From an uncultured Lentisphaeraceae bacterium (GTDB lineage: Bacteria > Verrucomicrobiota > Kiritimatiellia > RFP12 > UBA1067), in contig CAZXVN010000184.1 in NCBI GenBank assembly GCA_964643945.1, forward strand, positions 1 through 18,692: a stretch of DNA of 18,692 nucleotides, read 5' to 3'. How positions within the stretch are numbered: the first letter of the stretch is position 1; each line of letters begins with the position of its first letter. Positions 1-16,199 of this stretch are shown here, in pieces. Position numbers and translations under genes: made by a program. The notes below the pieces were generated by a model. The model saw nothing but the letters and a program-made list of their open reading frames with translations, was not told where the DNA came from and ran no database searches.

Positions 1-1391
1 ACCTCGTACTTGCCCACCCACAACTTGAGCGACGCCACCCAAACGAACTCCATGCCCGTTGACGGCGACGCCCACGGCTCACCCTCTGCCGGCCCACTGT
101 TTCTCACCTTGGCTGCGCTGGCCAAAGCCGCCGCGTCCGCCCTTTCCTTCGCCAGCCGCGCAGCCGCCTGCCGCTCCGCATCAGCCTTCTCCCGCTGTGC
201 CGCGAACAGCCTCGCCGCCTGCTCATTCCGGCTTCGGGCTTCTGTCTCCTGTCTCCTGTATTCTCCATACGTCCTATACGTCCCGTAAGCCAGCGCGACC
301 GCCGCAACCGCCGCCAGCCCCAGCGCCCACGCCTTCTTCTGACTCCTGACTCCCGGCTTCTGACTTCTGTCTCCCGCCAGCGCCGCCACGAAAGCGGAGC
401 AGTCGGCGAACCTCTCCCCCGGCTCCTTCGCCAGACCCCGCAGCAGCGCCGCGTTCTGCGCCTTGGTCAAAACCCCCAGGCTGTCCGGCTTCTTGTTCTC
501 CGCCGCATTGGCCATGATCACCGCATCGCCGGTGTCGAACGCGCTCGCGAACGGCACCGCGCCGCTGACCAGCTCGTAGAACAGCGCGCCCAGCGCGTAC
601 TGGTCCGCGCGCCCGTCCTGCTTCTTTCCTACCCACTGCTCCGGCGCCATGTACGGCCGCGTGCCGCTCGTGTCGCCCTTCTCCTGGCTCACCCGGCTCA
701 TGCTCGACCGGATCTCCGCCGCCAGCCCGAAGTCCAGCATCTGGACGGACAACCCCGTTCCCCTTCCGTCCCCGCTCCCCGTTCTGTCTTCTGACTTCTG
801 TCTTCTGACTTCTGTCTCTCGCGTTTCGACCATCACGTTCGAAGGCTTCACGTCCCGGTGTGCCACCCTCATGCCGTGCGCGTAGTCCAGCGCCTCCGCG
901 ACCTGCCGGCACACCTCCAGCGCCTGCGCCACCGGCACCTTGCCTTCGGAAAACTGCTTGCGCCACTTGGAGAGCGTAACCCCCGGCGCGTACGCCATCA
1001 CCATCAGGTAGTAGCCCGGCAGCACCCGCAGCGCCTGACGCACCCGCTCGTCGGCATACCGCGTCTCCTTGGCCTGATGCAGGTGCAAAGCGGCCGCGAT
1101 ATGCGGGTGGTGCAGCTTGGAGACCAGCGCGAAATTCTCCCGGATGCGCTCCAGCTCCTCGGCGTTGTTCCTCACCAAAGGCGGCAGCCCCTTCACCGCC
1201 ACCTCGATGCCCGCCACCGTGTCCCGCGCCAGGTACACCGTGCCGAACCCGCCGCCGCCCAGCTCGCGCAGCAGCTCGTACTGGTCGATGCAGCCCAGCG
1301 GAGCGCCTTCGCGGCCTGAGGTTTTCACGTCGCCCATACTCACCGGCCCGGCCCGGCGCATCGTCTCTTGATCAAAATCTTTTTCGCTCAT
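1..1391 (-). CDS. Hanks-type Ser/Thr protein kinase with TM segment and start of a C-terminal FGE-sulfatase (formylglycine-generating-enzyme-like) domain; partial, the 3' end runs off the window start
   Basis: My own translation gives an uninterrupted minus-strand frame from the ATG at 1391-1389 (RBS AAAGGAG 7 nt upstream) to position 1. It is absent from the ORF track only because no stop lies in the window. Motifs seen: LGGGGFGTVY, AVK, HRDVKPSNV, DFGLA, YMAPEQW, then TM segment WALGLAAVAAVALAY, then GMEFVWVASLKLWVGKYEV. It is a nucleotide-level paralogue of 8023-10128 (compare 400-680 with 9150-9420). It contains three in-frame heptamer-repeat insertions. Confidence 0.8.
   Translation of the reverse strand, partial: MSEKDFDQETMRRAGPVSMGDVKTSGREGAPLGCIDQYELLRELGGGGFGTVYLARDTVAGIEVAVKGLPPLVRNNAEELERIRENFALVSKLHHPHIAAALHLHQAKETRYADERVRQALRVLPGYYLMVMAYAPGVTLSKWRKQFSEGKVPVAQALEVCRQVAEALDYAHGMRVAHRDVKPSNVMVETRETEVRRQKSEDRTGSGDGRGTGLSVQMLDFGLAAEIRSSMSRVSQEKGDTSGTRPYMAPEQWVGKKQDGRADQYALGALFYELVSGAVPFASAFDTGDAVIMANAAENKKPDSLGVLTKAQNAALLRGLAKEPGERFADCSAFVAALAGDRSQKPGVRSQKKAWALGLAAVAAVALAYGTYRTYGEYRRQETEARSRNEQAARLFAAQREKADAERQAAARLAKERADAAALASAAKVRNSGPAEGEPWASPSTGMEFVWVASLKLWVGKYE
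233..267 (+). repeat. heptamer array (TYCTGWC)n, degenerate, lying in-frame in kinase 1-1391
   Basis: ttctgtc tcctgtc tcctgta ttctcc; encodes GEYRRQETEA in the kinase. Confidence 0.6.
334..378 (+). repeat. heptamer array (TYCTGWC)n lying in-frame in kinase 1-1391
   Basis: ttctgac tcctgac tcccggc ttctgac ttctgtc tcccgcc; encodes DRSQKPGVRSQKK. Confidence 0.7.
782..818 (+). repeat. heptamer array, 5 units, in-frame inside the kinase catalytic core
   Basis: ttctgtc ttctgac ttctgtc ttctgac ttctgtc; encodes ETRETEVRRQKSEDR between HRDVKPSNV and DFG. Confidence 0.8.
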
Positions 1392-1555
1392 GCGATTGCT
1401 CCTTTACATCACATCGAATGGAGCCTCGAAAGCGGGACTGCCACGATCTTCTCGGCCAGGTGGCGGATGCGCTCCATGAGCAAAAAACAATCGCCGGTCA
1501 CAGGCTCCTTCTCACGCGAATGCCCGCCTGTTTGTGGAGCGTTGGTCGTCCCGCC

Positions 1556-2014
1556 TCACTGCTTCACCTGCGCCGACGGCGAATTGGTGCCAGGGGCGGA
1601 CCACCCGGCCGTCTTGGCCTTGATGTGCTGCCACGCGCCGGAACCGGCAAGAACAATCTCTTCCCGCAGTTGCCGCGCCTTTTCGGTCGCGCGCTCCATC
1701 GCGGTCGGCTCCGGCGGCGGCTGAGGCAGCAGGTCGCCGTAGCCGGCATTGATCAGCGCGCGGCTGAGTTCGTGCCTCGCCACGGCGTCTTCCCATTTCC
1801 AGCTGCGGATGTCGGCGCATGTGCCCGACAGGGCGACAAAGCGTTTGGGCACCACCACAAGCCCTTTTCCCGTCCGCACCAGATGGTGTCCGGAGAGCCA
1901 GACCAGCGAGCCCGCAATCACGGCCGCGCCGAGCACCGTCGTCACGCCCGCCCATATCCACATCCGCATCCGGAACGACCGGCTCCGCACCACCGAGACA
2001 AAATGCGTCCTCAT
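1556..2014 (-). CDS. hypothetical membrane-anchored protein (N-terminal TM helix, ~110 aa soluble domain)
   Basis: ATG at 2014-2012 is preceded by GGAGGTGAGC. The upstream ORF's TGA stop sits 2 nt before that ATG, suggesting translational coupling. Hydrophobic segment WIWAGVTTVLGAAVIAGSLVWL. Third codon positions are GC-rich, consistent with the other minus-strand genes. Confidence 0.55.
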   Translation of the reverse strand: MRTHFVSVVRSRSFRMRMWIWAGVTTVLGAAVIAGSLVWLSGHHLVRTGKGLVVVPKRFVALSGTCADIRSWKWEDAVARHELSRALINAGYGDLLPQPPPEPTAMERATEKARQLREEIVLAGSGAWQHIKAKTAGWSAPGTNSPSAQVKQ

Positions 2015-2016
2015 GC

Positions 2017-2358
2017 TCACCTCCCGCCGTACATCAGCCAACCGGCCACACCTGCAGCGACCAGCAACACAATCACCAGAACGATCATGCCCCAGTAGCT
2101 GCGGTGGCGGCATACGCCCGCTGGCGGCAGCGCCGAATCGATGCGCGTCCGACCGGCCCGCGCGTTGTACTCCTGCTCAAGCGTTTCTTTTCGGTTCACA
2201 AATTTCTCTCTCCCCTTCTGTCTTCTGACTCCTGTCTTCTGTCTTCTGACTTCTGACTCCTGACTCCTGTCTTCTGACTCCTGTCTCCTGACTCCTGACT
2301 TCTGTCTTCTGTCTCTCAAAACACCGCCCCCAGAATCGGCGAGCCGGTCGTGCCGCAC
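2017..2358 (-). CDS. small hypothetical membrane protein; N-terminal part is encoded by heptamer-repeat array 2216-2313 (ER/K-rich) and the C-terminus is a TM helix; start uncertain (alternative GTG at 2199 with GGGGAGAG RBS)
   Basis: ORF in the track. C-terminal MIVLVIVLLVAAGVAGWLMY. It overlaps the 3' end of gene 2316-2957 by 42 nt in another frame. Confidence 0.3.
   Translation of the reverse strand: MRHDRLADSGGGVLRDRRQKSGVRRQESEDRSQESEVRRQKTGVRRQKGREKFVNRKETLEQEYNARAGRTRIDSALPPAGVCRHRSYWGMIVLVIVLLVAAGVAGWLMYGGR
2216..2313 (+). repeat. heptamer array, 14 perfect units
   Basis: Begins 3 nt after the stop of gene 2316-2957. Confidence 0.85.
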
Positions 2359-2957
2359 TCGTTCCAGAGCCCGATCTGCAGGCCGGCGCCGCTCTCGGCG
2401 TGGTTGATCAGGCCGATCTGCAGGCCGCGCAGACGCGTCGCGACATTCCAGATGCCGCCGATCTGAATGCCATTGACCGTATCCGCCCGATTGTGGATAA
2501 ACGTTACTTGAAGGGCGAGGGGCGCGTCGCCTTTAATCCGGTTATAGAGCCCTCCCACCTGGATGCCGCTGAAATCGTTGCAGATGTTGTCGAAAAAGTT
2601 GCAACTGATGCCGGCCGCATCGCCGTTGATCTCGCCGCTCACGCCGACATCAATCCCGTAGATGTCGTTGTGCCCGGCGGGCCAACCCGGCGAGCAGGCG
2701 TTCACACGAAGACCGTAGACGTTCCACCCGCGGGAGTAAGGGATACCCCACTCCAGCACCGTAATCGCGAGCGGGGTCACAGGCCCTTCGTGAGAGGTCT
2801 GCACCGATACGCCACCCGTTGCGCCCATCGGCACCGTGCCGGGCGGCACCGTCGAAGGCGGGGCCGTCTTACCCCCCGGGTTCATGTCCGTCCCGGCTGC
2901 CGCCGCGAGGGCGAGCCCCACCGCGACGCCCGCCGTCACTATTTGTTTCATCTTCAT
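2316..2957 (-). CDS. secreted Gly-rich beta-repeat protein (signal peptide; repeated G-x-Q-I/V-G-G/L-x-N units)
   Basis: Signal peptide MKMKQIVTAGVAVGLALAAAAG; AAGGA RBS upstream. Internal repeats GIQVGGLYN, GIQIGGIWN, GLQIGLINH, GLQIGLWNE. Confidence 0.65.
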   Translation of the reverse strand: MKMKQIVTAGVAVGLALAAAAGTDMNPGGKTAPPSTVPPGTVPMGATGGVSVQTSHEGPVTPLAITVLEWGIPYSRGWNVYGLRVNACSPGWPAGHNDIYGIDVGVSGEINGDAAGISCNFFDNICNDFSGIQVGGLYNRIKGDAPLALQVTFIHNRADTVNGIQIGGIWNVATRLRGLQIGLINHAESGAGLQIGLWNECGTTGSPILGAVF

Positions 2958-2988
2958 CGTTCGTTTCCTTTTTCTCTGTCTTCACTCC

Positions 2989-3876
2989 TCACCGATGGAT
3001 ATTCAGCTCCTCAATCGTGTAAAGCCGGTTGATGATTCCGTCCGGGAAACGGTCGCGGTCATACACGATCCGGGCCTGCAACGTCCTGTTGACGTTATCC
3101 GTCGCAAGGATCGTACAGTCGTAAACCCCGGCGAGCGCGCGCACCCGTTGCGTAAACAGGGTCGGGTATTCCGAGTGAGACGAGAGGAACCAGGCGTTGG
3201 CGATCGTCACCATGCAGATCTCTGCCTTGCCGCCGACCTTCACACACGCGTCCGCCAGCCAGGGCGACACGGTTGTGGCCATCTTGTCGGCCACACTCTT
3301 CAGCGCGTCTCCTGCACCACGTCCGGGCGCGCCCTGCACGTCAAACCGGTTACGCGCCACCATGTCCGTCATCACCTGTTTCGTGATGGCGTTGAACTCC
3401 GGCGAGCGGGTAACAGTCGCATCCACATCGCCCTTATAAACCACCCGCGTACCGCGCGCGTTCAGCGGTTCGCAGGTCACGCCGAGGTCCGCATAGAGCT
3501 CGGCCGGCCCGTCATAGACCACTTTGTAGTTGGCGGCCGCCAGCGCGCCTTGCACGCCGTTGCCGAGCAGCGTCGCAACCTGCGTGGCATCCTGCCCCGC
3601 AGCCACGGGACGCACCCGCACCCGTACCTGCTCCAACACCGCCGACGCCGTGGCGATCTGGGTTTGCGCCGGACGCAGATCCACCGCCGTCGGACGCGCG
3701 CCAACCCCGGTCACCTGCACCGGCTGCGGCGTCACGATCATTCCGGGACTGGCCGTCACGGACACGCCGCCGGCCGTTGTTGCGGGATAGAGCACCGTCT
3801 TCGTTTCCACCGTCCGGCAGCCTGTCATCGCCAGCGCGAGCATGCCGGCACCTGTCACAAACATCATTTTTTTCAT
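2989..3876 (-). CDS. hypothetical lipoprotein
   Basis: Lipoprotein signal MKKMMFVTGAGMLALAMTGC (lipobox LAMTGC). 16-nt gap to the upstream gene and 31-nt gap to the downstream gene. Confidence 0.65.
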   Translation of the reverse strand: MKKMMFVTGAGMLALAMTGCRTVETKTVLYPATTAGGVSVTASPGMIVTPQPVQVTGVGARPTAVDLRPAQTQIATASAVLEQVRVRVRPVAAGQDATQVATLLGNGVQGALAAANYKVVYDGPAELYADLGVTCEPLNARGTRVVYKGDVDATVTRSPEFNAITKQVMTDMVARNRFDVQGAPGRGAGDALKSVADKMATTVSPWLADACVKVGGKAEICMVTIANAWFLSSHSEYPTLFTQRVRALAGVYDCTILATDNVNRTLQARIVYDRDRFPDGIINRLYTIEELNIHR

Positions 3877-3892
3877 GATCGCTTTCCCTTTC

Positions 3893-5163: not shown

Positions 5164-5188
5164 TGAAGAAGAAGTCAGAAGAAGACAG
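5164..5188 (-). repeat. reverse-orientation heptamer copy (GWCAGRA) in the spacer; inverted partner of 5275-5351
   Basis: gaagaagaa gtcagaa gaa gacagga. Confidence 0.6.
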
Positions 5189-5231
5189 GATTCGGAATCG
5201 CCGATGCCGACTGCTTTTTTCCGTCTTGCTT

Positions 5232-6179
5232 TCATTCCGGCTCCTGACATTTAATGCCCGTCTTTTCTTTCCCCTTCTGACTTCTGTCTTCTGACTCCTG
5301 GCTTCTGTCTTCCGACTTCTGTCTCCTGTCTTCTGTCTCCTGACTTCTGTCGCCCGTCTCCCCGAACCCGGCCAGCTCGGCCGCGAAATCGCCCGTGTCC
5401 CGGTCGCGCCTGCGGCCCGCGCGGTCCAGGTCTCCCACGGCGTCCTGCACCGACTCGGCGTCGCCGGTCTTGTCCTCGATGTCGTCCGCGAGCCGGTCAA
5501 TCAGGTTCTCGTCCACCTTGCCGCGCAGGCCGTGCGCGATCAGCTCCATGAAGCGCCCCTTGACCGTGAGGATCGTCTGCTCGTTCTCCGAGAGCAGCAT
5601 GAACTCGCGCTCCAGGCTCTTGTACTGCGTCATCAGCGTCTGCAGCTCGGTCTTCAACATGCGCTGGCGGACCGGCGAGGCACCCTCGTAGGCCTTCTTC
5701 TTCGAGGCGATCACCCCGTGCAGCACCTCCATCTCGGCCGACGCCTTCTCGCGCCGCGCGCGGTTCTCGTCCAGGCCGCTGTTGAGCGAACCCAGCATCG
5801 CCTCGGGCGAACGGTCCACATGGATCTTCGCCCACAGACCCTTCACGCCCGCGCCGATCTTTCCGGCCAGAACGACAGTCTCAGCCATGGCCTTCTTCGC
5901 CAGCTCCTTCGTGGCGCTGCGGACAAGCCGCTGTTCCTCCTCGCGGTTCTCGGCCCCTGTCTCATCCTTCTGACTTCTGTCTTCTGTCTTCTGACTTCTG
6001 ACTTCTGTTCCCATAACCTTCTCCTTCCATCCGTGCTCCGGACACCGCCCGTTACCTTGATTCGCATGCAACACGCAGAACGCCGCCCCGCACCCCTTCT
6101 CCGCACAGCGCCCCCCGACCGCCCAGCGGTTCGGCAGACTTTGCTCGCATATGCAACACTGTTCGCGCTTGTCATTCAT
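5232..6179 (-). CDS. zinc-ribbon protein with ER/K-rich linker and ~190-aa coiled-coil/helical domain (possible PspA/ESCRT-III-like); C-terminus encoded by repeat array
   Basis: N-terminal CCICEQ...C...C..CPEHG zinc-ribbon motif, then a helical region (RLVRSATKELAKKAMAE ... LIDRLADDIEDKTGD). Two heptamer arrays lie in-frame (5968-6009 linker, 5275-5351 C-terminus). The duplicated promoter element is ~160 nt upstream. Confidence 0.55.
   Translation of the reverse strand: MNDKREQCCICEQSLPNRWAVGGRCAEKGCGAAFCVLHANQGNGRCPEHGWKEKVMGTEVRSQKTEDRSQKDETGAENREEEQRLVRSATKELAKKAMAETVVLAGKIGAGVKGLWAKIHVDRSPEAMLGSLNSGLDENRARREKASAEMEVLHGVIASKKKAYEGASPVRQRMLKTELQTLMTQYKSLEREFMLLSENEQTILTVKGRFMELIAHGLRGKVDENLIDRLADDIEDKTGDAESVQDAVGDLDRAGRRRDRDTGDFAAELAGFGETGDRSQETEDRRQKSEDRSQESEDRSQKGKEKTGIKCQEPE
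5275..5351 (+). repeat. heptamer array, 11 units; encodes the C-terminus of gene 5232-6179
   Basis: ttctgac ttctgtc ttctgac tcctggc ttctgtc ttccgac ttctgtc tcctgtc ttctgtc tcctgac ttctgtc. Confidence 0.85.
5968..6009 (+). repeat. heptamer array, 6 units, forming an in-frame linker in gene 5232-6179
   Basis: Encodes GTEVRSQKTEDRSQKDE. Confidence 0.8.
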
Positions 6180-6235
6180 TTAATTCGTATACAATACCGT
6201 TTCCATTCTCCAGCCTCAAGCATCCCGTCTCCAAA

Positions 6236-6326
<91 letters not shown>

Positions 6327-6346
6327 TTTTTCCCTTAAACGCCGCT

Positions 6347-6376
6347 ATCTTACGTTTTGTTTACGTCTGTTGTCAA
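6347..6376 (-). promoter_or_regulatory. sigma70-like promoter (minus strand: TTGACA, 18-nt spacer, TAAGAT), copy A of a duplicated ~50-bp element; AT-rich UP-like tract at 6381-6440
   Basis: On the minus strand the sequence reads TTGACAACAGACGTAAACAAAACGTAAGAT. It is near-identical to 15977-16006 (4 mismatches over ~52 bp). Confidence 0.5.
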
Positions 6377-6482
6377 CTGCTATTATCAATTATTTTTAAA
6401 TTATTTTATTTTATCTCTGTTACTCATTACACGAACTCGAATCTTTCGCCGCTCTCGCCCCCCCATCGGACGGGCCCGCCCC

Positions 6483-7694: not shown

Positions 7695-7735
7695 GACAAA
7701 AACTCCTTAATGCCGATTCCTTTTGATATGGACGA

Positions 7736-7771: not shown

Positions 7772-7921
7772 TTACCCGGCCCGCGTCGCGTCCTCATTCA
7801 TCGTCTGCTGCCTGTTGTCCACCAACACGTTCGCTGGCTTGATGTCGCGGTGGACCACGCCCTGCCCGTGCGCGTATGCCAAAGCCTCCGCCACCTGCCC
7901 GCCCCACCACACGTCCAGCAT
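7772..7921 (-). pseudogene. relic fragment of a Ser/Thr kinase gene (subdomain VIb: [25 protein letters not shown])
   Basis: A 49-codon minus-strand [52 protein letters not shown]. The nucleotide sequence is similar to 9527-9600 of kinase 8023-10128. No N- or C-terminal kinase lobes flank it. Confidence 0.5.
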
Positions 7922-8022
7922 CGCACTCCGCTCGGGGTTCGTACCTTACCCTCGTCCCCACCGATTCCCGCAGCTCCCCTCAACTAATGCACTTCTCGCA
8001 CTAATGCAACAATACACTTCTT

Positions 8023-10128
8023 CTACTGACCTGGGAGAAGGACAGCCCGGAACCCGATCCTGGAGTCGCGGTGGTTCGGTTTGCGGCCGCCGCGGTCCGC
8101 AACCCGGCAATCGCCCGCGTAGCCGCGCCAACTGCCGCCGCGGGCCACGCGGGGCGAGCCCGACGTCGGACCTGCGGGATCAGTCACACTCCCGGACGGA
8201 TAATCGCCGTACCAGTCCTGGCACCACTCCCACACGTTGCCGAGCATGTCGTAAAGACCCCAGGCGTTCGCCTGTTTCTGCCCTACAGCATGCGTCACCT
8301 GCCCACTGTTGCCGCTATACCAGCCCATATCCAGAGCTCCTGCATACGATCCCACCGCCCCCGCTCGACAAGCATACTCCCACTCCGCCTCCGTCGGCAG
8401 CCGAAACCGTCCCCCGGGAGGGACGCGCGTCTGCGCGTCCGCCAGCTTCGCGTTCAGCTTCCTCATAAACTCCTGACAGTCCTCCCAACTCACCTTCTCC
8501 ACCGGCAAATCAGCGCTCTTAAAGTTGCTGGGGTTGGTGCCCATGACTGCCCCCCACTGCCGCTGCGTCACCTCGGTCTTCCCCATCCAAAACCCCTTAG
8601 TAAGCGTCACCCGGTGCTGTGTCTCGTCTTTAGACCGGCCCGTTTCGCTTTCGGGACTCCCCATCATAAAGCTACCCGCCGGGCACCACGCCAGCTCGAT
8701 CTTCACGCCGCCGCCGAGGTCTAAAGTCTCCGTGTCGCCAGGGTTATGTCCGGCCTTCTGCACGGCGGCGCTTGCCACCTTTAGCCTCTCGCTTTCAGCA
8801 GCCAACGCTTCCTGCTTATGCGTTTCTTCCTGCTCGGACGCCGGACGCGCAGACGCGCGTCCCTCCGAGGCGTTAACGGGAGGGTCAAGCGTCTGCTTGA
8901 CCGCAAGACGCGCCTGTATCTCATGCCGGTTCCAAAAAGCCGCGAACCCATAGGCGGTCACAGCCGCAACCGCTCCAGCCGCAACCCACAGCCACGCCTT
9001 CCTCTTTCCTCCGCCATCCGCCTTCTGGCCACCGCCCTCTGGCTCCCGACGCCCGACGCCCGACTCACGACTCTCGACTCCCTGTCTTACGACCTCCACC
9101 TTCCAGTTTCTCTCCCCCTGCCCTCCGGCACCCTTTCCCGCCAGCGCCTTCACAAATTCCCCGCAGCTCGCGAACCTCTCCCCCGGCTCTTTTGCCAGCG
9201 CCCGCAACAGCGCCGCGTTGACATGCGCCGGCACGCCTTCCAGCGGACGGGGTGCCTCTTTCAGCACCGCCTCGCGCAGCACCGCTGTGTCGTGGCCCTC
9301 GAAGGGCGGCGACCCGCCCACCAGCTCGTAGACCGTCGCCGCCAGCGCGTACTGGTCCGCGGGCGCGCCCTGCGGCCGCCCCTGCCACTGCTCCGGCGCC
9401 ATGTAGGGTCCCGTGCCGCTCGTGCCGTGGGTGGTCTGGCTCACGCGGCTCAGGCTCATGTGCAATTGCGCCGCGAGCCCGAAGTCCAGCACCTTCACCT
9501 CGCCCGCGAAGTTCACCCGCACGTTGCTCGGCTTGATGTCGCGGTGGATCACGCCCTGCTCGTGCGCGAAGTCCAGCGCCTCCGCGATCCGGTAGGCGAT
9601 GATCGTCACCTCGTCCAGCGTCAGCGGCCGGCCCTCCTCGCGCCGCCGCCGCACCCACTGCCGCACGTCGTAGCCGTCCACGCACTCCATGACCAGATAA
9701 TAGTCGCCCGTGACCGGATCCTTCTCCAGCGTGTTGACGTTGGCGATGTTCGGGTGGTGGAGCTTCGAGACCAGCCGGAAGTTCTCGCGCACCTCCTCCA
9801 TCTCGCCGCTGTTGTGCCCCACCTCCGGAGGCAGCGCCTTCAGCGCCACATCCAAGCCCGCCACCTCATCGTGGCAGCGGTACACCACGCCCATGCCGCC
9901 CTGCCCAAGCTCCCCCTCCACCCGGTAGCGCCCCAAAAGCACCTCGCCGGCCGCTAGGCGCCGCCCCGCAGGCCCCGCCCCGCCCGGCCGCATCGTCTTG
10001 ACGCTGCCTAGGCTCAAGTCATCCGCGGGTGCGCTCCCGCCATGCCGCAGGGTCGGCGAATCGCCCAGGCTGCGGTCGTCCGGCGGCTTGCCGCCCATCG
10101 TCTTTTGATTGCCGATCGAGTTATCCAT
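8023..10128 (-). CDS. Hanks-type Ser/Thr protein kinase - TM - FGE-sulfatase (SUMF1-like) domain fusion
   Basis: LGQGGMGVVY, ALK, HRDIKPSNV, DFGLA, YMAPEQW; TM segment WLWVAAGAVAAVTAYGFAAF; C-terminal FGE-like region (GSFMMGSP ... GLYDMLGNVWEW ... RGGSW). The start is uncertain because there is no clear RBS at 10128. Confidence 0.85.
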   Translation of the reverse strand: MDNSIGNQKTMGGKPPDDRSLGDSPTLRHGGSAPADDLSLGSVKTMRPGGAGPAGRRLAAGEVLLGRYRVEGELGQGGMGVVYRCHDEVAGLDVALKALPPEVGHNSGEMEEVRENFRLVSKLHHPNIANVNTLEKDPVTGDYYLVMECVDGYDVRQWVRRRREEGRPLTLDEVTIIAYRIAEALDFAHEQGVIHRDIKPSNVRVNFAGEVKVLDFGLAAQLHMSLSRVSQTTHGTSGTGPYMAPEQWQGRPQGAPADQYALAATVYELVGGSPPFEGHDTAVLREAVLKEAPRPLEGVPAHVNAALLRALAKEPGERFASCGEFVKALAGKGAGGQGERNWKVEVVRQGVESRESGVGRREPEGGGQKADGGGKRKAWLWVAAGAVAAVTAYGFAAFWNRHEIQARLAVKQTLDPPVNASEGRASARPASEQEETHKQEALAAESERLKVASAAVQKAGHNPGDTETLDLGGGVKIELAWCPAGSFMMGSPESETGRSKDETQHRVTLTKGFWMGKTEVTQRQWGAVMGTNPSNFKSADLPVEKVSWEDCQEFMRKLNAKLADAQTRVPPGGRFRLPTEAEWEYACRAGAVGSYAGALDMGWYSGNSGQVTHAVGQKQANAWGLYDMLGNVWEWCQDWYGDYPSGSVTDPAGPTSGSPRVARGGSWRGYAGDCRVADRGGRKPNHRDSRIGFRAVLLPGQ
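9044..9114 (+). repeat. degenerate heptamer-periodic array (TCCCGAC/GCCCGAC/TCACGAC/TCTCGAC...) lying in-frame inside kinase 8023-10128
   Basis: 7-nt periodicity read directly. It encodes VEVVRQGVESRESGVGRRE at the position homologous to the ER/K inserts of kinase 1-1391. Confidence 0.5.
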
Positions 10129-10151
10129 GGTGTTTGCTTGAGAAACCAGAT

Positions 10152-10165
10152 GTCAGGAGTCAGAA
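10152..10165 (-). repeat. reverse-orientation heptamer copy (gtcagga gtcagaa); inverted partner of 10191-10232
   Basis: Read directly. Confidence 0.5.
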
Positions 10166-10190
10166 TGCGTGCATCTTTCACCGCATTTCA

Positions 10191-10232
10191 TTCTGTCTTC
10201 TGACTTCTGTCTCCTGACTCCTGTCTTCTGTC
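10191..10232 (+). repeat. heptamer array, 6 units, in the Vps4-like to kinase spacer
   Basis: ttctgtc ttctgac ttctgtc tcctgac tcctgtc ttctgtc. Confidence 0.8.
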
Positions 10233-10234
10233 GC

Positions 10235-11353
10235 CTATCCGAACCGCGCCTGCCTGAACTTTTCGAACTCGCGCAGCATCGCTTCCGTGATCGAGCTGGG
10301 GACGCGCCGCCGCGCCTCCTCGAAGTCCCCTGCCGTCAAAACAGGATCGCCATCTTCAAGCACGGCGCGGCCGAGCGCAAGGCGCTTGGCCGTGTTCACG
10401 ACCGCCGCCACGTCGCTCCCGGAAAAGCCCTCCAGCGCCTCCGCCAGCGCGCCTCCATCCACCGCCTCGCCGCACACGGCGCTTCCCAGATGCTTTTTGA
10501 AAATGCCCAGCCGAGCCTCGGCGTCCGGCGGCCCGATGAAAATCTTCTCGTCGAAACGCCCCGTGCGGAACACCGCCTCGTCGATCTCCCACGGCTTGTT
10601 CGTGGCGCCCAGGATCAACAGCACGTTCTTCGTCTCGCGGAAACCGCCCACATCCGCCAGGAACTGCGTCACGATGCGGTGGTCGGCACCGGAGGTGCCG
10701 TCGTCGCGCTTGGGCAGCAGCGCCTCGACCTCGTCCAGAAACAGCACCGCCATCGGCTGCTCCTGAGCCGTGCGGATCAGCCGGCTCAGCCGCTGCTCCG
10801 ACTCGCCGTACCACTTGGACCGCAACTGCGCGCCCGAGGCATAGTAGAACGGACACTCCAGCACTCCCGCCACCGCCTTGCCCAGCATCGTCTTGCCGGT
10901 GCCGGGAGGGCCGTACACCAGCACGCCCCCGCCCGGATTCAGCCCCAGCGCCCGCGCTTTCTCGGGGCTCTTCATCGGATACACCACCATCTCGTGGATC
11001 ACGCGCTTCGCGTCGGCCATGCCCGCAATGTCGTCGAATGTCACGTCCGGCTTCTCCGCCACCAGCCACTCGTCGCCGTCGGAAGGCTCGACGCTCGACT
11101 CACGACCAGCGACGGGCGAATGCTGACCGCCGCCCGCCGACTGCCGCTTCTTTAGCTCATTCGCCAGCGCCACCCACCCCTCCGCGTCCTGCGCGTGCGC
11201 CTCGGCCACAGGCCCGCTGCTGCGCTCCGCCAGCGCGAAGCCGCACTCCGCCGCGCGCGCCGCCGCCGCCGCCGCACGCCCGTAGTCGCGCACCTTGACG
11301 AACTCCGCGCAGGCGTTCTCGTGCCCCGTTTTGATCTCAACCATCGAGCGCAT
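10235..11353 (-). CDS. Vps4-like (meiotic clade) AAA+ ATPase with ~100-aa N-terminal extension (possible MIT-like domain)
   Basis: Walker A GPPGTGKT; pore loop 1 SKWYGESE (the Vps4/spastin/katanin signature); Walker B LFLDEVEA; GATNKPWEIDEAVFRTGRFD; C-terminal helix MLREFEKFRQARFG (compare the Vps4 C-terminal ...W..EFG). The start follows the upstream gene's stop by 12 nt, with RBS GAGAGGGGA. Confidence 0.85.
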   Translation of the reverse strand: MRSMVEIKTGHENACAEFVKVRDYGRAAAAAARAAECGFALAERSSGPVAEAHAQDAEGWVALANELKKRQSAGGGQHSPVAGRESSVEPSDGDEWLVAEKPDVTFDDIAGMADAKRVIHEMVVYPMKSPEKARALGLNPGGGVLVYGPPGTGKTMLGKAVAGVLECPFYYASGAQLRSKWYGESEQRLSRLIRTAQEQPMAVLFLDEVEALLPKRDDGTSGADHRIVTQFLADVGGFRETKNVLLILGATNKPWEIDEAVFRTGRFDEKIFIGPPDAEARLGIFKKHLGSAVCGEAVDGGALAEALEGFSGSDVAAVVNTAKRLALGRAVLEDGDPVLTAGDFEEARRRVPSSITEAMLREFEKFRQARFG

Positions 11354-11365
11354 CGTTGTCCCCTC

Positions 11366-11989
11366 TCACTTCAGCATCTCGCGCACCTTCTCCTGGCCGC
11401 CGCCGATGCGGCGTTCCAGATCGGAAGAGGTCTTCGCGCTCACGCCGGAAATGTCGGCGGACACCTCCTGCTCCAGCGATTTCGTCAGCTCCTCCATGGA
11501 CGGGATGTGGTCCTGCATGTTGCCTGTCGCGCCTTCCATCTCCTTGTCGTACAGCGACGCCCAGAAGCGGTCCGCGTCCTGCTGCTCGCCCAGCAACTCG
11601 CCCGCCGTGTCGAACACGTCCTCGACCATTTCCGGATTGATGTCCGTTACCTTGTTGACCGCCGCCAGTGCGCTGGCGAACTCGGCGTCGGTCCCGGCGG
11701 TCTCCATCTTCATGAGATACTGCTCGAACACCCAGCGCTTCTGCTCCAGCTTGGTCATCAGCACCTGCGCCGCGCGGTAGCTGGTCAGGGAGCGCTGCGC
11801 GGCCGCCTTCTTTCCTTCCTTGAGCGCGTCCCGCGCCTTCTGCCAGTCCGCCTCCGCGTCCTTCTCCATACGCTTGGCGCGGTCTTTCACATCCTGCACC
11901 GCGTTCTCCGCCTGCCGGAACGCCCGCCGCCGGTCCTTGCGCACCGCCCGCTCTTTTTCCTTCTTCGTCTTGATGAATAGAAAACTCAT
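11366..11989 (-). CDS. ESCRT-III / Snf7-family (PspA-Vipp1 superfamily) protein
   Basis: 207 aa. N-terminus MSFLFIKTKKEKE resembles the CHMP/Snf7 MxxLFGK motif. Basic helical N-half (KDRRRAFRQAENAVQDVKDRAKRMEKDAE...KEGKKAAAQRSL) and acidic C-half (PEMVEDVFDTAGELLGEQQDAD...). C-terminal SSDLERRIGGGQEKVREMLK resembles a MIM1 (D/E)xxLxxRL motif. Strong RBS AAAGGAG. The next gene downstream is the Vps4-like ATPase. Confidence 0.65.
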   Translation of the reverse strand: MSFLFIKTKKEKERAVRKDRRRAFRQAENAVQDVKDRAKRMEKDAEADWQKARDALKEGKKAAAQRSLTSYRAAQVLMTKLEQKRWVFEQYLMKMETAGTDAEFASALAAVNKVTDINPEMVEDVFDTAGELLGEQQDADRFWASLYDKEMEGATGNMQDHIPSMEELTKSLEQEVSADISGVSAKTSSDLERRIGGGQEKVREMLK

Positions 11990-12008
11990 ACCATGCTCCT
12001 TTCTGAAC

Positions 12009-12043
12009 AGCAGAAGACAGAAGTCAGAAGACAGAAGTCAGAA
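12009..12043 (-). repeat. reverse-orientation heptamer array, 5 units; inverted partner of 12082-12154
   Basis: cagcaga gacagaa gtcagaa gacagaa gtcagaa. Confidence 0.8.
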
Positions 12044-12081
12044 TAAACACGTCGAGAAAGTCGCTTTTGTCGATCGTTCCA

Positions 12082-12154
12082 TTCTGATTCCTGACTCCTG
12101 ACTTCTGTCTCCCGTCTCATTCTGACTTCTGACTCCTGTCTCCTGACTCCTGCC
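12082..12154 (+). repeat. heptamer array, ~10 units, in the FHA to ESCRT-III spacer
   Basis: ttctgat tcctgac tcctgac ttctgtc tcccgtc ... ttctgac ttctgac tcctgtc tcctgac tcctgcc. Confidence 0.8.
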
Positions 12155-12157
12155 GTC

Positions 12158-13735
12158 TCACAGCCCATACTGACTAAACGTCTTGACCTCGATCTGCACG
12201 CCGCCCGCGCCGATCCGCGTGCCGGGCACCAGCCACCCCGCCGCACCCTCCGCACGCCAGGCGAACGCGCCGCGCTCGTGGCACACCGTCACCCCCTCGC
12301 ACCCCGGCAGAATGTTCCCGAGATCCAGGCAGGACCACATCACCGCATAGACCTCCGACACCGCGTCCCGGCGCCGCAGGATGACCGCAGGCGTCTTGCC
12401 GCGGTGGCACATCTTCTCGTCGCGCCCCCCGCACGCCGCGCACCGCGCCGTATCGAAAAAGCAGCCGTGCGCCGTCAGCCCGAAATCGTATGCGTCCGCC
12501 GTGCCCGCCAACCCCAGCGCGGCCACTGCGGGAAAACGGTCCGCCGGAAAGCGCTCGCTGCCCTTGACCGCCCGACCCTGCCAGAAAACCCCGCAGGCGG
12601 AGGCTTGCATCACACCGTTCTCAGTCCGCACACCGTCATGCACAATGCACTGCCCGTCGGCGTACTCCAGCGTGCAGTGAAACTTGCTGATGCGCGCGTT
12701 GCGTTCAGGAAGGGCCTCGCCGTCCGGCTCGAACAACCGCGTCACGATCTGATTGGCGCGGTTCTTGCCCAATGTGACCCGACTTCCCGCGATCAGATGC
12801 GCAATCCGGTTCCCGACGCGAAGAGTCACCCGCTCGGCCGTCGCCGCCGCAGGTGCCGCAGGCAGCGGGTGATGCAGCACCCAGCCCGACTCAAAAAGAC
12901 TCAGCCGGTGAAACGCCGGCGGCTTGGAGTGCAGCAGGTTCAGCAGTTCCTCGATCGAATGGGCCTGCCCGTTCTTGACCAGCTTGCTCACCGCCTCGGC
13001 CGCGTCCTGGTGTACACGGATATCCGCCGCATGCCCGGCCTTGATGTCGTTGTTGATGTTGAAGGTGATGTTGTCCGCGACCTGCTTGGTCGAACAGTCC
13101 GCCGGATAAACGAACAGGCATACCTCGGTCTCGTATGTGGTGGTCTTGCCGTCTTTCGTCAGCCCGAAGTAGACCGACGCCGAGAACGCGCCGTGATTCA
13201 TGGGATGCACCGGCAGGTTGATCCCGCGCGGCACCCCGAGCTTGGGGTTCGGCCAGTTGAAGGGATGCTCGACCACCTGAGAGATCCCGTTCGGCTTGAG
13301 CCACACGCGGACGTGCTGGACACCCTCGACAAGCGGCGTCAGCCGGAAGCGCACCAGCGCGCTGGCACCCGCCACGCAGAACGCCAGGGTGTCGCTTTCC
13401 ACACACAGCCACGGGCAATCCCCGAAGCCGTCATCGTCCGTGCCGACGCTCTGCGCCGCCGCAGTCCGCTCATTGACGGGTTCGGTGTTGAGCAGAATGA
13501 TCCGGGCCGGCCGCTCGTCAGGATCTGGCGTCCTGATGATCGCGGCAACCGCCGACGGCGCCTCGCCCACGGAATCGCCCGGCCTCCGCAGATAAGTCGG
13601 CTCCGGCCGGAAACCGCTCTCGGCTTCCGCAGGCGTTGCCGCCGACGGACCCGGCGCCAGCGGCGCGCCGCATCTGTCGCAGAACGAGCCCTCTACCGTC
13701 TTCCCTCCGCATGTCCGGCAACTCACCCGAGCCAT
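12158..13735 (-). CDS. zinc-ribbon + FHA-domain protein with Cys-rich C-terminal region
   Basis: N-terminal CRTCGGKTVEGSFCDRCG. FHA-like core GKNRANQIVTRL...RISKFHCTLEYADGQCIVHDGVRTENGVMQASACGV. C-terminal CAACGG...C..GCEGVTVC. RBS GAGGAG 8 nt upstream; the start lies 12 nt after the upstream stop. Confidence 0.7.
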   Translation of the reverse strand: MARVSCRTCGGKTVEGSFCDRCGAPLAPGPSAATPAEAESGFRPEPTYLRRPGDSVGEAPSAVAAIIRTPDPDERPARIILLNTEPVNERTAAAQSVGTDDDGFGDCPWLCVESDTLAFCVAGASALVRFRLTPLVEGVQHVRVWLKPNGISQVVEHPFNWPNPKLGVPRGINLPVHPMNHGAFSASVYFGLTKDGKTTTYETEVCLFVYPADCSTKQVADNITFNINNDIKAGHAADIRVHQDAAEAVSKLVKNGQAHSIEELLNLLHSKPPAFHRLSLFESGWVLHHPLPAAPAAATAERVTLRVGNRIAHLIAGSRVTLGKNRANQIVTRLFEPDGEALPERNARISKFHCTLEYADGQCIVHDGVRTENGVMQASACGVFWQGRAVKGSERFPADRFPAVAALGLAGTADAYDFGLTAHGCFFDTARCAACGGRDEKMCHRGKTPAVILRRRDAVSEVYAVMWSCLDLGNILPGCEGVTVCHERGAFAWRAEGAAGWLVPGTRIGAGGVQIEVKTFSQYGL

Positions 13736-13747
13736 AAGTTATTCTCC

Positions 13748-15418
13748 TCAATGCACGATCGTCTGCGGCTGGGCCGCCTGCCGTTTGGCAGCCTCCACCG
13801 CCGGCTCGAGCATCGTTTTCAGGTTCTTGTCCTGCCGGTCGTTGGCATCCGCGTAGAGCTTCTTCATCTCAGCCAGCAGCATCTCGGCGTTCTGCCTGGT
13901 GCGGTCGCTCATCTTGCCGAGCGCCTCCGCCGCCGCCGGGCTGCTGTGCGCCGCCTCGGCCAGGATCTGCTCGGGCGTCATCGTGCGGTTGCGCTCCACC
14001 ATCATCAGCTCGACCAGCTGACGCCGCAGGGCGGGATCGTCCACATCCGCCAGCATCTGCTCCGTGGTCATCCCCGCACGCCGCTTGGCCTCAGCCGCCT
14101 TGCGCTCCAGCTCTATCCCGTCTTTCCGGGAACGCATGTCCAGCGCCCACTCCGCCTCGGTCTTCTCCTGCTGGAACGTCTCGTTCCGGGCCTTGGCCTG
14201 CGCGTTGGCCTGCTTCACGGCAAGCTCAAGATTGTAATCGTCCCATTTGACCTTGACGCCGATCGCCTGCTCCGCCTTCTGGTTCTCGACATCGTGCCGG
14301 TGCCGCAGATCGTCCAGCTCGTTCAGATGCGCATAGCCGCGCAGCAGCACCGTCCGCTCCTGCTCGCGCTGGGCCTGCGCGATGCCGTGCTCGTGCGCGG
14401 CCTGCTCCTCGTACTCCAGCAGGTCGGTCTTGTCCTTGAACTGGGCCATCGCCTCTTTGTTCAGCAGCCCGCGCATGGCCGACGCGTACTCCAGCTCGCG
14501 CCGCTTGATGTCCACCTCGCCGAGCCGCTCCGCGTACTCCTCGTACTCGTCGCCCGTGAACTCCGCCGACGACACGCGCACCACCTGCAGGCCGTACCGC
14601 CCGATGTCCTCGCCGATCGCCCGGACCATCGTCTCCTGCAGGCGCAGCCGCCGCTCAGGATCGCGCACAAGGTCATCCAGCGTAGAGGTCACGCACAGCG
14701 CGTCCACCGCCGCGCGCACCGCCCCCTGCAGCGCCTCGGAAAGATCCTTGTACGCCAGATGACGCCGGTCCTTGAGCCCGTTCTCCAGCAGCGCCAGCGC
14801 GGCGGCCTTGTCATTGCCGAACCGCAGGATCACCTCGCCGTAGAACTCGATCGGGTGATGCTCCGCCGTACGCAGACCGGTCACGCGCAGCGGCAGCGCC
14901 ACGTCGCCGCAGTCGGCCATCACTGCCGAGCGCGGGGGCGGGTCGCCGAACCAGTTGATCTTGCGCGCCAGGCTGTCCGGGTTGTGACGGCCGCTCTCGA
15001 GGATGCCGTGGATGTGGCCGCCGTCCAGCACCACCGCCACCGTGCCCTCCTGCACCATCAGGTCGTCCTGCAAGAGCCGCTTGATGTCGCCGATCTCGAA
15101 GCGCTGCGCGAACAGCCCCGGATCCTTGCGCCACACGCCGCCGGCCATCACCGCGCGGTCTTCCGGGAAGAGCGGGGTGTTGCAGTGCGAGCAATACTGC
15201 GACGCGTTGCCGATCCACTTCTTGCACGAGGGACACTTCCACCAGCCCCCCGGCGCGGGCACGCCGCACTTGTTGCAGAAGCGCGCGGCCTTGCGCACCG
15301 AATTGCCGCAGCGCGCCCACTTCGGATCCAGTTTCGCCTGCGCCAAGGCCTCGCCGCCCAGCGCCCGCCCCGTCCGGGGGTCGATCAAAGCGTCACACCG
15401 GTCACTGAATATGCCCAT
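13748..15418 (-). CDS. zinc-ribbon + SPFH (band-7 / flotillin-like) protein with long C-terminal coiled coil
   Basis: Two CxxC pairs (CGNSVRKAARFCNKCG, CPSCKKW...CSHCNTP), then an SPFH core (QEGTVAVVLDGGHIHGILESGRHNPDS ... GLQVVRVSSAEF), then ~250 aa of E/K/R/A-rich coiled coil. RBS AAAGGCGAGGT. Confidence 0.75.
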   Translation of the reverse strand: MGIFSDRCDALIDPRTGRALGGEALAQAKLDPKWARCGNSVRKAARFCNKCGVPAPGGWWKCPSCKKWIGNASQYCSHCNTPLFPEDRAVMAGGVWRKDPGLFAQRFEIGDIKRLLQDDLMVQEGTVAVVLDGGHIHGILESGRHNPDSLARKINWFGDPPPRSAVMADCGDVALPLRVTGLRTAEHHPIEFYGEVILRFGNDKAAALALLENGLKDRRHLAYKDLSEALQGAVRAAVDALCVTSTLDDLVRDPERRLRLQETMVRAIGEDIGRYGLQVVRVSSAEFTGDEYEEYAERLGEVDIKRRELEYASAMRGLLNKEAMAQFKDKTDLLEYEEQAAHEHGIAQAQREQERTVLLRGYAHLNELDDLRHRHDVENQKAEQAIGVKVKWDDYNLELAVKQANAQAKARNETFQQEKTEAEWALDMRSRKDGIELERKAAEAKRRAGMTTEQMLADVDDPALRRQLVELMMVERNRTMTPEQILAEAAHSSPAAAEALGKMSDRTRQNAEMLLAEMKKLYADANDRQDKNLKTMLEPAVEAAKRQAAQPQTIVH

Positions 15419-15526
15419 CGTATACCTCGCCTTTCATTGATTCGAATTCAACAGTCGGATTAGCACTAATCCTTATTCAGTTTTAAACACAATACCCGAA
15501 TCCATTCATTCATGCACGAAATTACT

Positions 15527-15540
15527 AACAGAAGTCAGAA
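15527..15540 (-). repeat. reverse-orientation heptamer copy (aacagaa gtcagaa); inverted partner of 15594-15621
   Basis: Read directly. Confidence 0.5.
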
Positions 15541-15589
15541 TAGTGGAAGAATTTGCTTTCAACCGTTTGCCCGTCTTCTCTTTCCCGCC

Positions 15590-15949
15590 TCAGTCTGACT
15601 TCTGTCTTCTGACTTCCGGCTTCTTCTCCCCATGTGCCCCGCACACTCGCACGCCCTGCCGTTTCCAGCAATCGAAACAGACCGGCGCGCCGCAGACCGT
15701 GCAGGCCTGCTGCAGCGCGCCCTTGCTCCGGTAATAGGTGCCGCACGCCTCGCAGGTCCCGCCTTCGGCGGCCTCCCGCTTGCTGCGGCTCAAATAGTCG
15801 CCCAGATCCGTCCGCGAGACCCGGTACAGCTTGCCCAGGCGCGCGGCGGGCAGCTCGCCCGCGCGCACCAGCCGGTAGATGAGTTGATAGGTCACGCCCA
15901 TCTCGTCCGCTACCTCCTCCAGGCTCAGATGCTCTTTGTCCGTCGGCAT
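15590..15949 (-). CDS. HTH_17 (MerR/excisionase-family) DNA-binding protein with C-terminal zinc ribbon; putative regulator and first gene of string 1
   Basis: LSLEEVADEMGVTYQLIYRLVRAGELPAARLGKLYRV (helix-turn-helix), then CEACG...CTVCG..CFDC...C. The preferred start is the ATG at 15949 with GGAGGTG 7 nt upstream; the track's 15955 is a GTG inside the RBS. The last codons read into repeat array 15594-15621. Confidence 0.65.
   Translation of the reverse strand: MPTDKEHLSLEEVADEMGVTYQLIYRLVRAGELPAARLGKLYRVSRTDLGDYLSRSKREAAEGGTCEACGTYYRSKGALQQACTVCGAPVCFDCWKRQGVRVCGAHGEKKPEVRRQKSD
15594..15621 (+). repeat. heptamer array, 4 units, forming the C-terminus of the regulator gene
   Basis: gtctgac ttctgtc ttctgac ttccggc; encodes ...PEVRRQKSD*. 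Confidence 0.75.
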
Positions 15950-15976
15950 ATACACACCTCCTCTTAAAACGCCGCC

Positions 15977-16006
15977 ATCTTACGTTTTGTTTACTTCTGT
16001 TGTCAA
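15977..16006 (-). promoter_or_regulatory. sigma70-like promoter, copy B of the duplicated element (minus strand TTGACA, 18 nt, TAAGAT), ~25-nt leader to the regulator gene; AT-rich UP-like tract at 16011-16075
   Basis: On the minus strand the sequence reads TTGACAACAGAAGTAAACAAAACGTAAGATGGCGGCGTTTTAAGAGGAGGTGTGTATATG. Confidence 0.55.
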
Positions 16007-16081
16007 CAGCTATTTTAAAATATTTTTTATTGCTGTATTTTTATGCCTGATATAGCGTCCCTTAAACGGTTTCCCTGCTAC

Positions 16082-16107
16082 TTGAACGTTGAACTCTCAA
16101 CGTTCAA
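16082..16107. promoter_or_regulatory. perfect inverted repeat TTGAACGTTGA-N4-TCAACGTTCAA, 75-100 bp upstream of the copy-B promoter -35; candidate transcription-factor site
   Basis: Read directly: 11-bp arms with a 4-nt spacer, and each arm is also near-palindromic. No U-tract follows, so it is not a terminator. Confidence 0.4.
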
Positions 16108-16114
16108 CTTTAAA

Positions 16115-16127
16115 CTCTCAATTTGAG
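16115..16127. promoter_or_regulatory. second small palindrome TCTCAA-T-TTGAGA
   Basis: Read directly; adjacent to the 26-bp palindrome. Confidence 0.25.
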
Positions 16128-16185
16128 AAGTTACCCTCTAGTTTGTTCGCGGCGCAGCCGTGCGGTTGGCTTGTCGATCCTCTCA

Positions 16186-16199
16186 TTCTGTCTCCTGAA
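16186..16199 (+). repeat. isolated 2-unit heptamer remnant (ttctgtc tcctgaa)
   Basis: Read directly. Confidence 0.4.

Follow-up and report, generated by a model that had tools for sequence, protein, structure and literature searches.

We analysed an 18,692-nucleotide stretch of DNA from an uncultured Lentisphaeraceae bacterium (contig CAZXVN010000184.1 of the assembly GCA_964643945.1), which we call the window. Its G+C content is about 63% and its convincing genes all lie on the minus strand. Both the genes and the spacers between them carry tandem arrays of a heptanucleotide that reads TYCTGWC on the plus strand and GWCAGRA on the gene strand. Counted on both strands over the whole window, the unit occurs 71 times on the plus and 12 times on the minus strand. 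A two-unit pattern was found 57 times, while 200 dinucleotide-preserving shuffles gave an expectation of 0.00, and Tandem Repeats Finder independently called period-7 repeats of up to 13.9 copies at matching sites. The strand-biased repeat family proposed in the original prediction, which had been made from the letters alone, is real. When arrays were extended in phase, with units of up to two mismatches accepted, we obtained 11 arrays on the plus strand, each with 4-14 units, another that is decayed, and four short ones oriented the other way. These roughly 16 arrays add up to 697 nt, or 3.7% of the window, and one further array lies outside it in the other 4.9 kb of the same contig. Positions 2 (T 58, C 32) and 6 (T 44, A 38) of the unit are polymorphic and the remaining five are 91-100% fixed. 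Since all genes of the contig are on one strand, the orientation of the arrays relative to replication is inseparable from their orientation relative to transcription.

Within genes, the arrays sit at domain boundaries, in a surface loop, in kinase linkers before a hydrophobic stretch and at two C-termini. Features below are on the minus strand unless stated otherwise, that is, GWCAGRA lies on the gene strand and TYCTGWC is read on the plus strand. Kinase 1 has three arrays. Six units (337-378, four of them perfect) encode GDRSQKPGVRSQKK in the linker just before a hydrophobic stretch, and a degenerate 5-unit array (226-260) encodes EYRRQETEARSR after the hydrophobic stretch LGLAAVAAVALA, which is presumably a membrane segment. 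Five perfect units (782-816) encode ETRETEVRRQKSEDRTG in the catalytic domain and belong to an insertion of about 22 residues that lies after the HRD catalytic loop and before DFG. This insertion is missing from kinase 2 (8023-10128) and from the ortholog of kinase 2 on a sister contig, L521, described below. In kinase 2 the linker before the hydrophobic stretch holds a decayed, GC-enriched array (9043-9082; TCGGGAG on the gene strand, CTCCCGA on the plus strand). The gene for a zinc-ribbon/coiled-coil protein (5232-6179) carries a 6-unit array (5968-6009) encoding the linker TEVRSQKTEDRSQK between the zinc ribbon and the coiled-coil domain, and a 12-unit array (5275-5358, nine units perfect) encoding its C-terminal tail GDRSQETEDRRQKSEDRSQESEDRSQK. 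In the minus-strand transcript this tail array doubles as the 5' arm of a hairpin, whose 3' arm is a short inverted partner array on the plus strand (5174-5190). The gene for an HTH_17 regulator ends in a 4-unit tail array (15593-15620, PEVRRQKSD) with a 13-nt inverted partner downstream, which includes one unit at 15534-15540; the whole feature spans 15534-15620.

The other arrays lie between genes. Fourteen perfect units (2216-2313) fill the spacer from the gene of a 213-residue protein (stop at 2316) to that of a 60-residue protein (GTG at 2199). Thirteen perfect units (6236-6326) lie in the 5' leader of gene 5232-6179 and begin about 20 nt past a predicted -10 box. Two intercistronic spacers hold foldbacks. 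The foldback between the AAA ATPase and kinase 2 genes (10152-10239) consists of a 7-unit purine arm (10191-10239), a 25-nt loop and a 2-unit inverted arm (10152-10165). The one between the genes of a 525-residue protein and a Snf7-like protein (12009-12161) has an 11-unit purine arm in two blocks (12082-12116 and 12120-12161), a loop and a 5-unit inverted arm (12009-12043). A lone unit and one degenerate unit (TTCTGTC TCCTGAA, 16186-16199) were found upstream of the HTH_17 promoter box. The original prediction had placed arrays three times in kinase 1, in the linker and C-terminus of gene 5232-6179, at the C-terminus of the regulator, as a decayed copy in the kinase gene 8023-10128 and in operon spacers, and all of these placements were confirmed.

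No stop codon occurs inside the array units on the gene strand, as had been predicted. The three gene-strand stops that we counted lie on the borders of arrays or between the two blocks of 12082-12161, and they include the real stops of upstream genes. The companion claim, that two of the three opposite-strand frames hit TGA, was imprecise. Because 7 and 3 are coprime, every opposite-strand frame reads TGW at each third unit, and only W=A in that unit blocks it. In arrays rich in TYCTGTC a plus-strand frame stays open, and a spurious plus-strand open reading frame (ORF), 5532-6338, crosses two arrays. Since three units equal seven codons, the three gene-strand frames encode a single cyclic peptide, [D/V]R[R/S]Q[K/E][T/S][E/G]. 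The predicted in-frame heptads rich in E, R, K, Q and S were borne out, and the coding arrays stay in frame in L521. In genes 27 of 44 units are perfect (61%), while in spacers 46 of 52 are (88%; Fisher p = 0.003, from a tally made by hand on the in-phase array listing). The degeneracy of the in-gene arrays fits selection against frameshift-prone perfect tracts.

The encoded peptide was found in only three of about 120 kinase homologs scanned, the best organism-named ones being from Lentisphaeria and Victivallales metagenome-assembled genomes (MAGs). In single-sequence AlphaFold models the linker array had a predicted local distance difference test score (pLDDT) of about 30 and no helix, and the C-terminal array was helical with a pLDDT of only 40-45. 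The simpler reading of these models is that the array-encoded segments would be disordered linkers. For gene 5232-6179, the NCBI annotation starts at an internal ATG at 6014 and gives 260 residues. However, the upstream in-frame zinc-ribbon segment MNDKREQCCICEQ is conserved as protein in L521 and in a more distant ortholog, L520. For this reason the product probably has 315 residues, with the 5968-6009 array as an internal linker.

Four spacers of the window contain a long sense array and, behind it, a shorter inverted copy, which together form a hairpin with 12-33 bp, roughly, in its stem. The RNA folds had z scores of -5.6 for 12009-12161 (-66.5 kcal/mol), -4.4 for 10152-10239 (-38.8 kcal/mol), -4.4 and -1.0, the last being the weak hairpin behind the HTH_17 regulator gene. 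In two of the four, the 5' arm doubles as the coding C-terminus of the upstream gene, and behind each 3' arm comes the next gene's leader or ribosome-binding site. These foldbacks do not look like Rho-independent terminators, which have a GC-rich stem, a loop of 3-8 nt and a U-run. No canonical U-tract was seen at the window foldbacks, and a terminator scan gave 14 terminator-like matches (13.7 expected), none of which coincided with a foldback. A search of the whole window against Rfam 15 at the gathering score gave no match.

The window is the reverse complement of the NCBI contig JBAXCU010000023.1 (MAG GCA_037141315.1) plus 35 extra end bases. Between these versions there are five substitution sites, one of them a 4-nt block, and one 3-nt indel, and all arrays are identical. 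The differences lie at about 7583, 7382, 14990, 15032, 16112 and 16140, none in arrays, and the indel (CTG) is inside an AAA_14/DUF4143 gene. The last 33 bases of the window (18660-18692) are the Illumina TruSeq adapter GATCGGAAGAGCACACGTCTGAACTCCAGTCAC, and JBAXCU010000023.1 begins just inside it. The window therefore derives from an untrimmed assembly version.

The closest relative is the sister contig L521 (JGI 3300010352) from a separate metagenome. It is syntenic with nearly identical gene order, and 10 of 12 orthologs share 77-94% protein identity. A comparison of orthologous genes, which the original prediction had suggested, gave shared sites with differing unit numbers when run with this contig. 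The 5' leader of the zinc-ribbon/coiled-coil gene has 13 units in the window and 3 in L521, and the spacer between the 213- and 60-residue protein genes has 14 and about 4. The tail of the coiled-coil protein has 12 units against about 15, and the tail of the HTH_17 regulator 4 against 4.6. In the linker of the coiled-coil protein both contigs have 6 units. At the kinase linker before the hydrophobic stretch, where the window array is decayed, L521 has about 10 units. Its coding arrays preserve the frame. Some arrays occur in one of the two genomes only, among them the inverted pairs 10152-10239 and 12009-12161, which have no counterpart in the L521 spacers, the latter spacer being 56 nt there.

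More distant orthologs (L122, L124, L520) are without the tail arrays, and arrays of this family are few or absent in them; in L122 there are none. In L124 and L520, arrays of the GTCGGAG/GTCAGAA type occupy the AAA linker and the equivalent kinase linker position. These variant arrays (GTCGGAG, AGTCGGC and GTCAGAA; 8052-8087 and 9997-10027 in L124, 9066-9096 and 11021-11051 in L520) belong to genomes of about 55% G+C. They reflect either repeated colonisation of identical protein positions or very old, drifted arrays. The coiled-coil linker GSRKSEMKSQDR of L520 may be a decayed array copy, judged by its sequence. The arrays are lineage-specific, persist at their sites and change in length, which is the behaviour of microsatellites.

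We then turned to three public collections (genome, viral and metagenome). Three- or five-unit patterns were found at no fewer than 120 loci in each, and 360 loci were analysed (L001-L120, L127-L246 and L522-L641). All results on public loci given from here on are among the matches listed. Those of the genome collection span Cyanobacteria, Acidobacteriota, Verrucomicrobiota, Bacteroidota, Desulfobacterota, Nitrospirota, Planctomycetota and others. We considered whether the TYCTGWC unit is especially widespread and dropped this idea, as composition-matched control heptamers were about as common. On viral contigs the two controls gave 98 and at least 120, the real unit at least 120. Wide occurrence is thus a matter of general heptamer-repeat abundance and is not special to this unit. 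A reversed-unit control, CWGTCYT, was discarded: at W=T and Y=T its letters are the real unit in cyclic permutation, and some of the same loci came back with it. Some unrelated loci, such as L154, L097 and L091, have an array density like that of the window, and in these three the arrays are apparently sense, as far as stop-to-stop ORFs tell.

For orientation relative to transcription, we counted the unpaired arrays of the 360 public loci using crude ORF calls. Inside genes 87 were sense and 11 antisense, so the orientation bias that the original prediction had proposed to examine is present in genes. The sense orientation also prevailed between co-directional genes (38 vs 17, p = 0.006) and 3' of genes (58 vs 16, p = 1e-6). 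An earlier test with loose ORF calls had given 32 vs 26 and is superseded by the stricter calls.

The inverted pairs followed a strict polarity. In pairs less than 150 nt apart the purine arm came first in 4 of 4 cases in the window and in 53 of 53 public ones, which makes 57 of 57 (p = 1e-17). Adjacent arrays were purine-first in 50 cases and the reverse in none at distances below 150 nt, against 6 and 11 beyond 1 kb. The counts for the two control heptamers were 8 vs 2 and 1 vs 1, and purine-first order may be a general rule for repeats with purine/pyrimidine asymmetry. Thirty-one of the 41 classifiable pairs lay between co-directional genes, and pairs usually took up the whole spacer except for 2-30 nt next to the flanking ORFs. 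The upstream arm was longer in 11 of 14 classifiable pairs (p = 0.03), a tendency that is only suggestive. Loops measured 0-140 nt and had no common sequence by eye. A permutation test for mirror order of unit variants between the arms was without power (lowest p 0.08) and speaks neither for nor against an inverted duplication as the origin of the pairs.

Taken together, the arrays are best explained as a simple sequence repeat (SSR) of the heptanucleotide GWCAGRA that was amplified in this lineage, is driven by slippage and filtered by transcription and coding, and forms hairpins with a probable post-transcriptional role. We consider this explanation probable. Slipped-strand mispairing would expand and contract the arrays, and selection would retain the stop-free, purine-rich orientation in transcripts. 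Point substitutions would then interrupt and stabilise the copies inside genes. The hairpins could act post-transcriptionally, by influencing RNA processing or stability or through translational coupling. As for their polarity, a free pyrimidine array, which is C-rich, G-poor and anti-Shine-Dalgarno-like, may be harmful unless a preceding purine arm pairs with it.

Several observations weigh against this explanation. Slippage is deduced from differences between genomes, and the arrays of the window and JBAXCU010000023.1 are identical. Five near-invariant and two freely polymorphic unit positions are not expected under neutral decay and imply sequence-specific constraint or frequent homogenisation between arrays. 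About 16 arrays of one family in 18.7 kb need a seeding mechanism beyond slippage. The L521 spacer alignments at the foldbacks 10152-10239 and 12009-12161 are compatible with insertion as well as with an origin in place. The function of the hairpins is a probable one, predicted from folds that have no canonical U-tract. Finally, the sense-strand statistics rest on crude ORF calls, and arrays 5' of genes showed the opposite trend (25 sense vs 41 antisense).

A broader proposal can be made only tentatively. The purine-first foldbacks, 5'-(GWCAGRA)n-loop-(TYCTGWC)m-3' on either strand, might be a widespread, unnamed class of intercistronic elements whose polarity is enforced in the transcript and which also serves as a source of linkers and tails. 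If so, the class would occur across many bacterial phyla and viral contigs. The polarity could then arise from a pyrimidine array, Rho-loading or anti-Shine-Dalgarno, that needs co-transcriptional pairing. Alternatively, the foldbacks would be sites of processing or attenuation through which expression within operons is tuned. On this proposal the repeat would also readily supply proteins with new disordered linkers and C-terminal tails.

The original prediction had also raised the idea of a mobile mini-element. This would be a non-autonomous foldback element in the style of miniature inverted-repeat transposable elements or of REPINs (hairpin-forming doublets of repetitive extragenic palindromic, REP, sequences), with arms of tandem heptamers, inserting in spacers and in frame in genes. 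It would account for one unit family scattered over about 16 sites, for the fixed pair polarity, which resembles that of terminal inverted repeats, and for the two window foldbacks missing from the orthologous L521 spacers. Yet there is no conserved core, the loops of 0-140 nt being without shared sequence by eye, no target-site duplication is visible at the edges, and the contig has no transposase or gene like the REP-associated tyrosine transposases (RAYTs). Most arrays are unpaired, and orthologous sites vary in copy number, not in the presence or absence of a fixed unit. The family also occurs in many phyla and viral contigs, but the similar spread of the control heptamers means that this distribution implies no transfer. 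With no positive evidence for it, we regard a mobile element as unlikely.

A slightly less likely possibility is that the arrays are sites for a sequence-specific protein, either a nucleoid protein or global regulator that binds DNA or an RNA-binding protein that recognises leaders and spacers. The unit itself argues for this, with five of seven positions 91-100% fixed and two free, and TCCTGWC variants would present AGGAG/GGA motifs every 7 nt on RNA. Arrays also lie in a 5' leader just past a conserved promoter and in intercistronic spacers. Published proposals name IHF/HU for Geobacter (PMC2700814) and S1, Csp and CsrA for TAACTGA (PMC4679880). Against such sites, the copy number at one site ranges from 3 to 14 between close relatives, many arrays are in coding sequence, where they are translated and decaying, and consecutive sites, 7 bp apart, face different sides of the DNA helix. 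No candidate for such a protein emerged.

Contingency loci for phase variation, in which gain or loss of 7 nt would shift a kinase frame or change a leader length and so switch expression, seem less likely again. Cases with heptanucleotides are known in pathogens (PMC8262952). The unit length is not a multiple of three, long perfect arrays lie in the 5' leader and beside start codons, and copy number does differ among relatives. However, the in-gene arrays contain interruptions or are degenerate (61% of their units are perfect, against 88% in spacers) and stay in frame in L521. The internal linker array 5968-6009 is unchanged in length there, and no frameshifted allele was found in any relative examined.

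That the arrays are selected peptide modules, with ER/K single alpha helices as rigid spacers and the intergenic copies as their remnants, is very improbable. The heptad is rich in E, R, K and Q, the arrays lie at linkers and tails, and the C-terminal array was modelled as helical. Single-alpha-helix linkers had been suggested, but the pLDDT values given above, about 30 without helix for the linker and 40-45 for the tail, do not support them. Every heptad contains S/T, G, D or V, residues that are rare in true ER/K helices. The longest and most perfect arrays are non-coding, and the tail sequences are poorly conserved between sister genomes. An assembly or sequencing artefact, finally, is effectively refuted: the source is a short-read MAG and the window terminates in an adapter, but the arrays are at most 98 nt long, the in-gene copies leave reading frames open, and related arrays stand at orthologous sites of separately assembled JGI, ENA and NCBI contigs, including a 6.1-Mb single-contig assembly, which excludes the artefact that the original prediction had named as one outcome fatal to it.

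The window holds a conserved gene cluster (8023-15955), which is also present in L122, L124, L520 and L521. It comprises the HTH_17 regulator, a zinc-ribbon SPFH/Band 7 protein, the 525-residue protein, the Snf7-like protein and the AAA ATPase, and it ends in one to several Ser/Thr kinases fused to FGE-sulfatase domains. The 525-residue protein has a weak FHA match. The Snf7-like protein (207 residues) has a weak, sub-threshold Snf7/ESCRT-III match (E = 4.5e-4) and no sequence match in the PDB, and the single-domain AAA ATPase is closest to the D2 domain of Cdc48/p97. One possibility is that the cluster forms a bacterial ESCRT-III/Vps4-like membrane-remodelling module controlled by kinases.

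Some 60 nt of conserved sequence form a box upstream of the HTH_17/zinc-ribbon regulator gene and of the zinc-ribbon/coiled-coil gene (15965-16030 and 6336-6400, minus strand), and at 13620-13680 of L521. The boxes have an identical predicted promoter (TTGACA, 18 nt, TAAGAT), and a promoter or operator is probably common to both genes. At about 7780-7960, a kinase-domain fragment separates kinase 2 from the AAA_14 gene (a 49-residue ORF at NCBI, with Pkinase matches), probably a pseudogene remnant of another kinase paralog. On the same contig past the window (L519), an inter-kinase spacer at 14540-14654 holds an imperfect GTGAGCC/GTGAGCG repeat, GGGGTAGGA, which is not GWCAGRA, and the last kinase has the internal peptide repeats GSSQQSA.GSQNAAD.

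The arrays have the properties of a heptanucleotide SSR. Copies of 7 nt stand head to tail beyond chance length, one unit family is dispersed at many loci (about 16 in the window), and copy number differs per locus between related genomes. They are neither CRISPR arrays, which have repeats of 24-48 nt and unique spacers of similar length, nor REP or bacterial interspersed mosaic elements. Both exclusions had been predicted and hold: the units are 7 nt long and contiguous, the arms have variable unit numbers with loops of 0-140 nt, and there is no transposase domain on the contig. Two other kinds of element share single traits with the arrays. Rickettsia palindromic elements are tolerated in frame in protein genes, and the REP/REPIN sequences of enterobacteria and pseudomonads form hairpins from inverted doublets and fill operon spacers. 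Both are fixed-length palindromes of conserved sequence, and REPINs are mobilised by RAYT transposases. In contrast, the window has heptamer arms of variable number with no conserved core and no associated transposase.

The heptamer family had been taken for no described repeat class, but its kind is known. The short tandemly repeated repetitive (STRR) sequences of cyanobacteria have the units CCCCAGT, TTGGTCA and CAACAGT, unlike that of the window. Like the arrays described here, STRRs and other long SSRs are dispersed heptanucleotide tandem arrays, as summarised in PMC4679880. According to Mrazek 2007, as cited there, heptanucleotides are the commonest long SSRs in repeat-rich prokaryotic genomes, and slippage is the proposed generator of long SSRs. 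In the literature consulted, units whose length is not a multiple of three are rare in coding sequence, whereas in the window they are common there. Dispersed families of a single heptamer include, besides STRRs, TAACTGA of the Beggiatoaceae (MacGregor 2015, PMC4679880). TAACTGA resembles the window family in that some copies lie in ORFs, in its mostly intergenic, forward position just upstream of start codons, in a suspected post-transcriptional role and in a patchy occurrence across phyla (marine Beggiatoaceae, some Cyanobacteria and Bacteroidetes). It differs in its unit, in having 2-6 copies per set at a far lower density, and in having a single inverted repeat among 169 sets, while the window has four inverted pairs. 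A search of the literature for the unit sequences themselves returned only primer-type noise.

The closest match to the window arrays, by unit and by the layout of inverted pairs, is the class 3 of "predicted global regulator binding sites" in Geobacter metallireducens, Gmet_I301-I308, where MTYCTGA is catalogued (Aklujkar et al. 2009, PMC2700814). In the register of the window this unit is TYCTGAM, and TTCTGAC and TCCTGAC are common to both. The last position is often A in G. metallireducens, and the window adds the TYCTGTC variant, which is common there. As in the window, tandem copies of the unit make up a site, about five in G. metallireducens. Its sites form intergenic pairs on opposite strands, for example at proB/proA, with listed starts 70-115 nt apart. 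The purine arm comes first in 8 of 8 pairs by our reading of the published coordinates. The G. metallireducens genome has 16 sites, while the window has about 16 in 18.7 kb. Opposite-strand pairing occurs at only four places in the window, where most arrays are unpaired, reach up to 14 units and are in many cases in genes and translated. For the G. metallireducens sites the authors proposed, without a test, IHF/HU-type DNA binding. We conclude that the TYCTGWC arrays are a new, unusually dense member of the known heptanucleotide SSR kind.

The window is thus a very dense example of a known but poorly understood phenomenon, the dispersed heptanucleotide repeats of bacteria, in an uncultured bacterium whose kinases are most like those of Lentisphaeria. 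It goes beyond the papers searched in three respects. There is direct comparative evidence that arrays persist at orthologous sites while their copy number changes. There is evidence that reading frames routinely take up a repeat whose length is not a multiple of three, in the form of linkers and tails, and that it is then stabilised by substitution, which is a simple route to new low-complexity protein segments. Lastly, the pairs have a strict polarity, both across phyla and in the published Geobacter table, a rule reported in no paper among the literature searched, and this rule makes the vague idea of a "regulatory repeat" directly testable.

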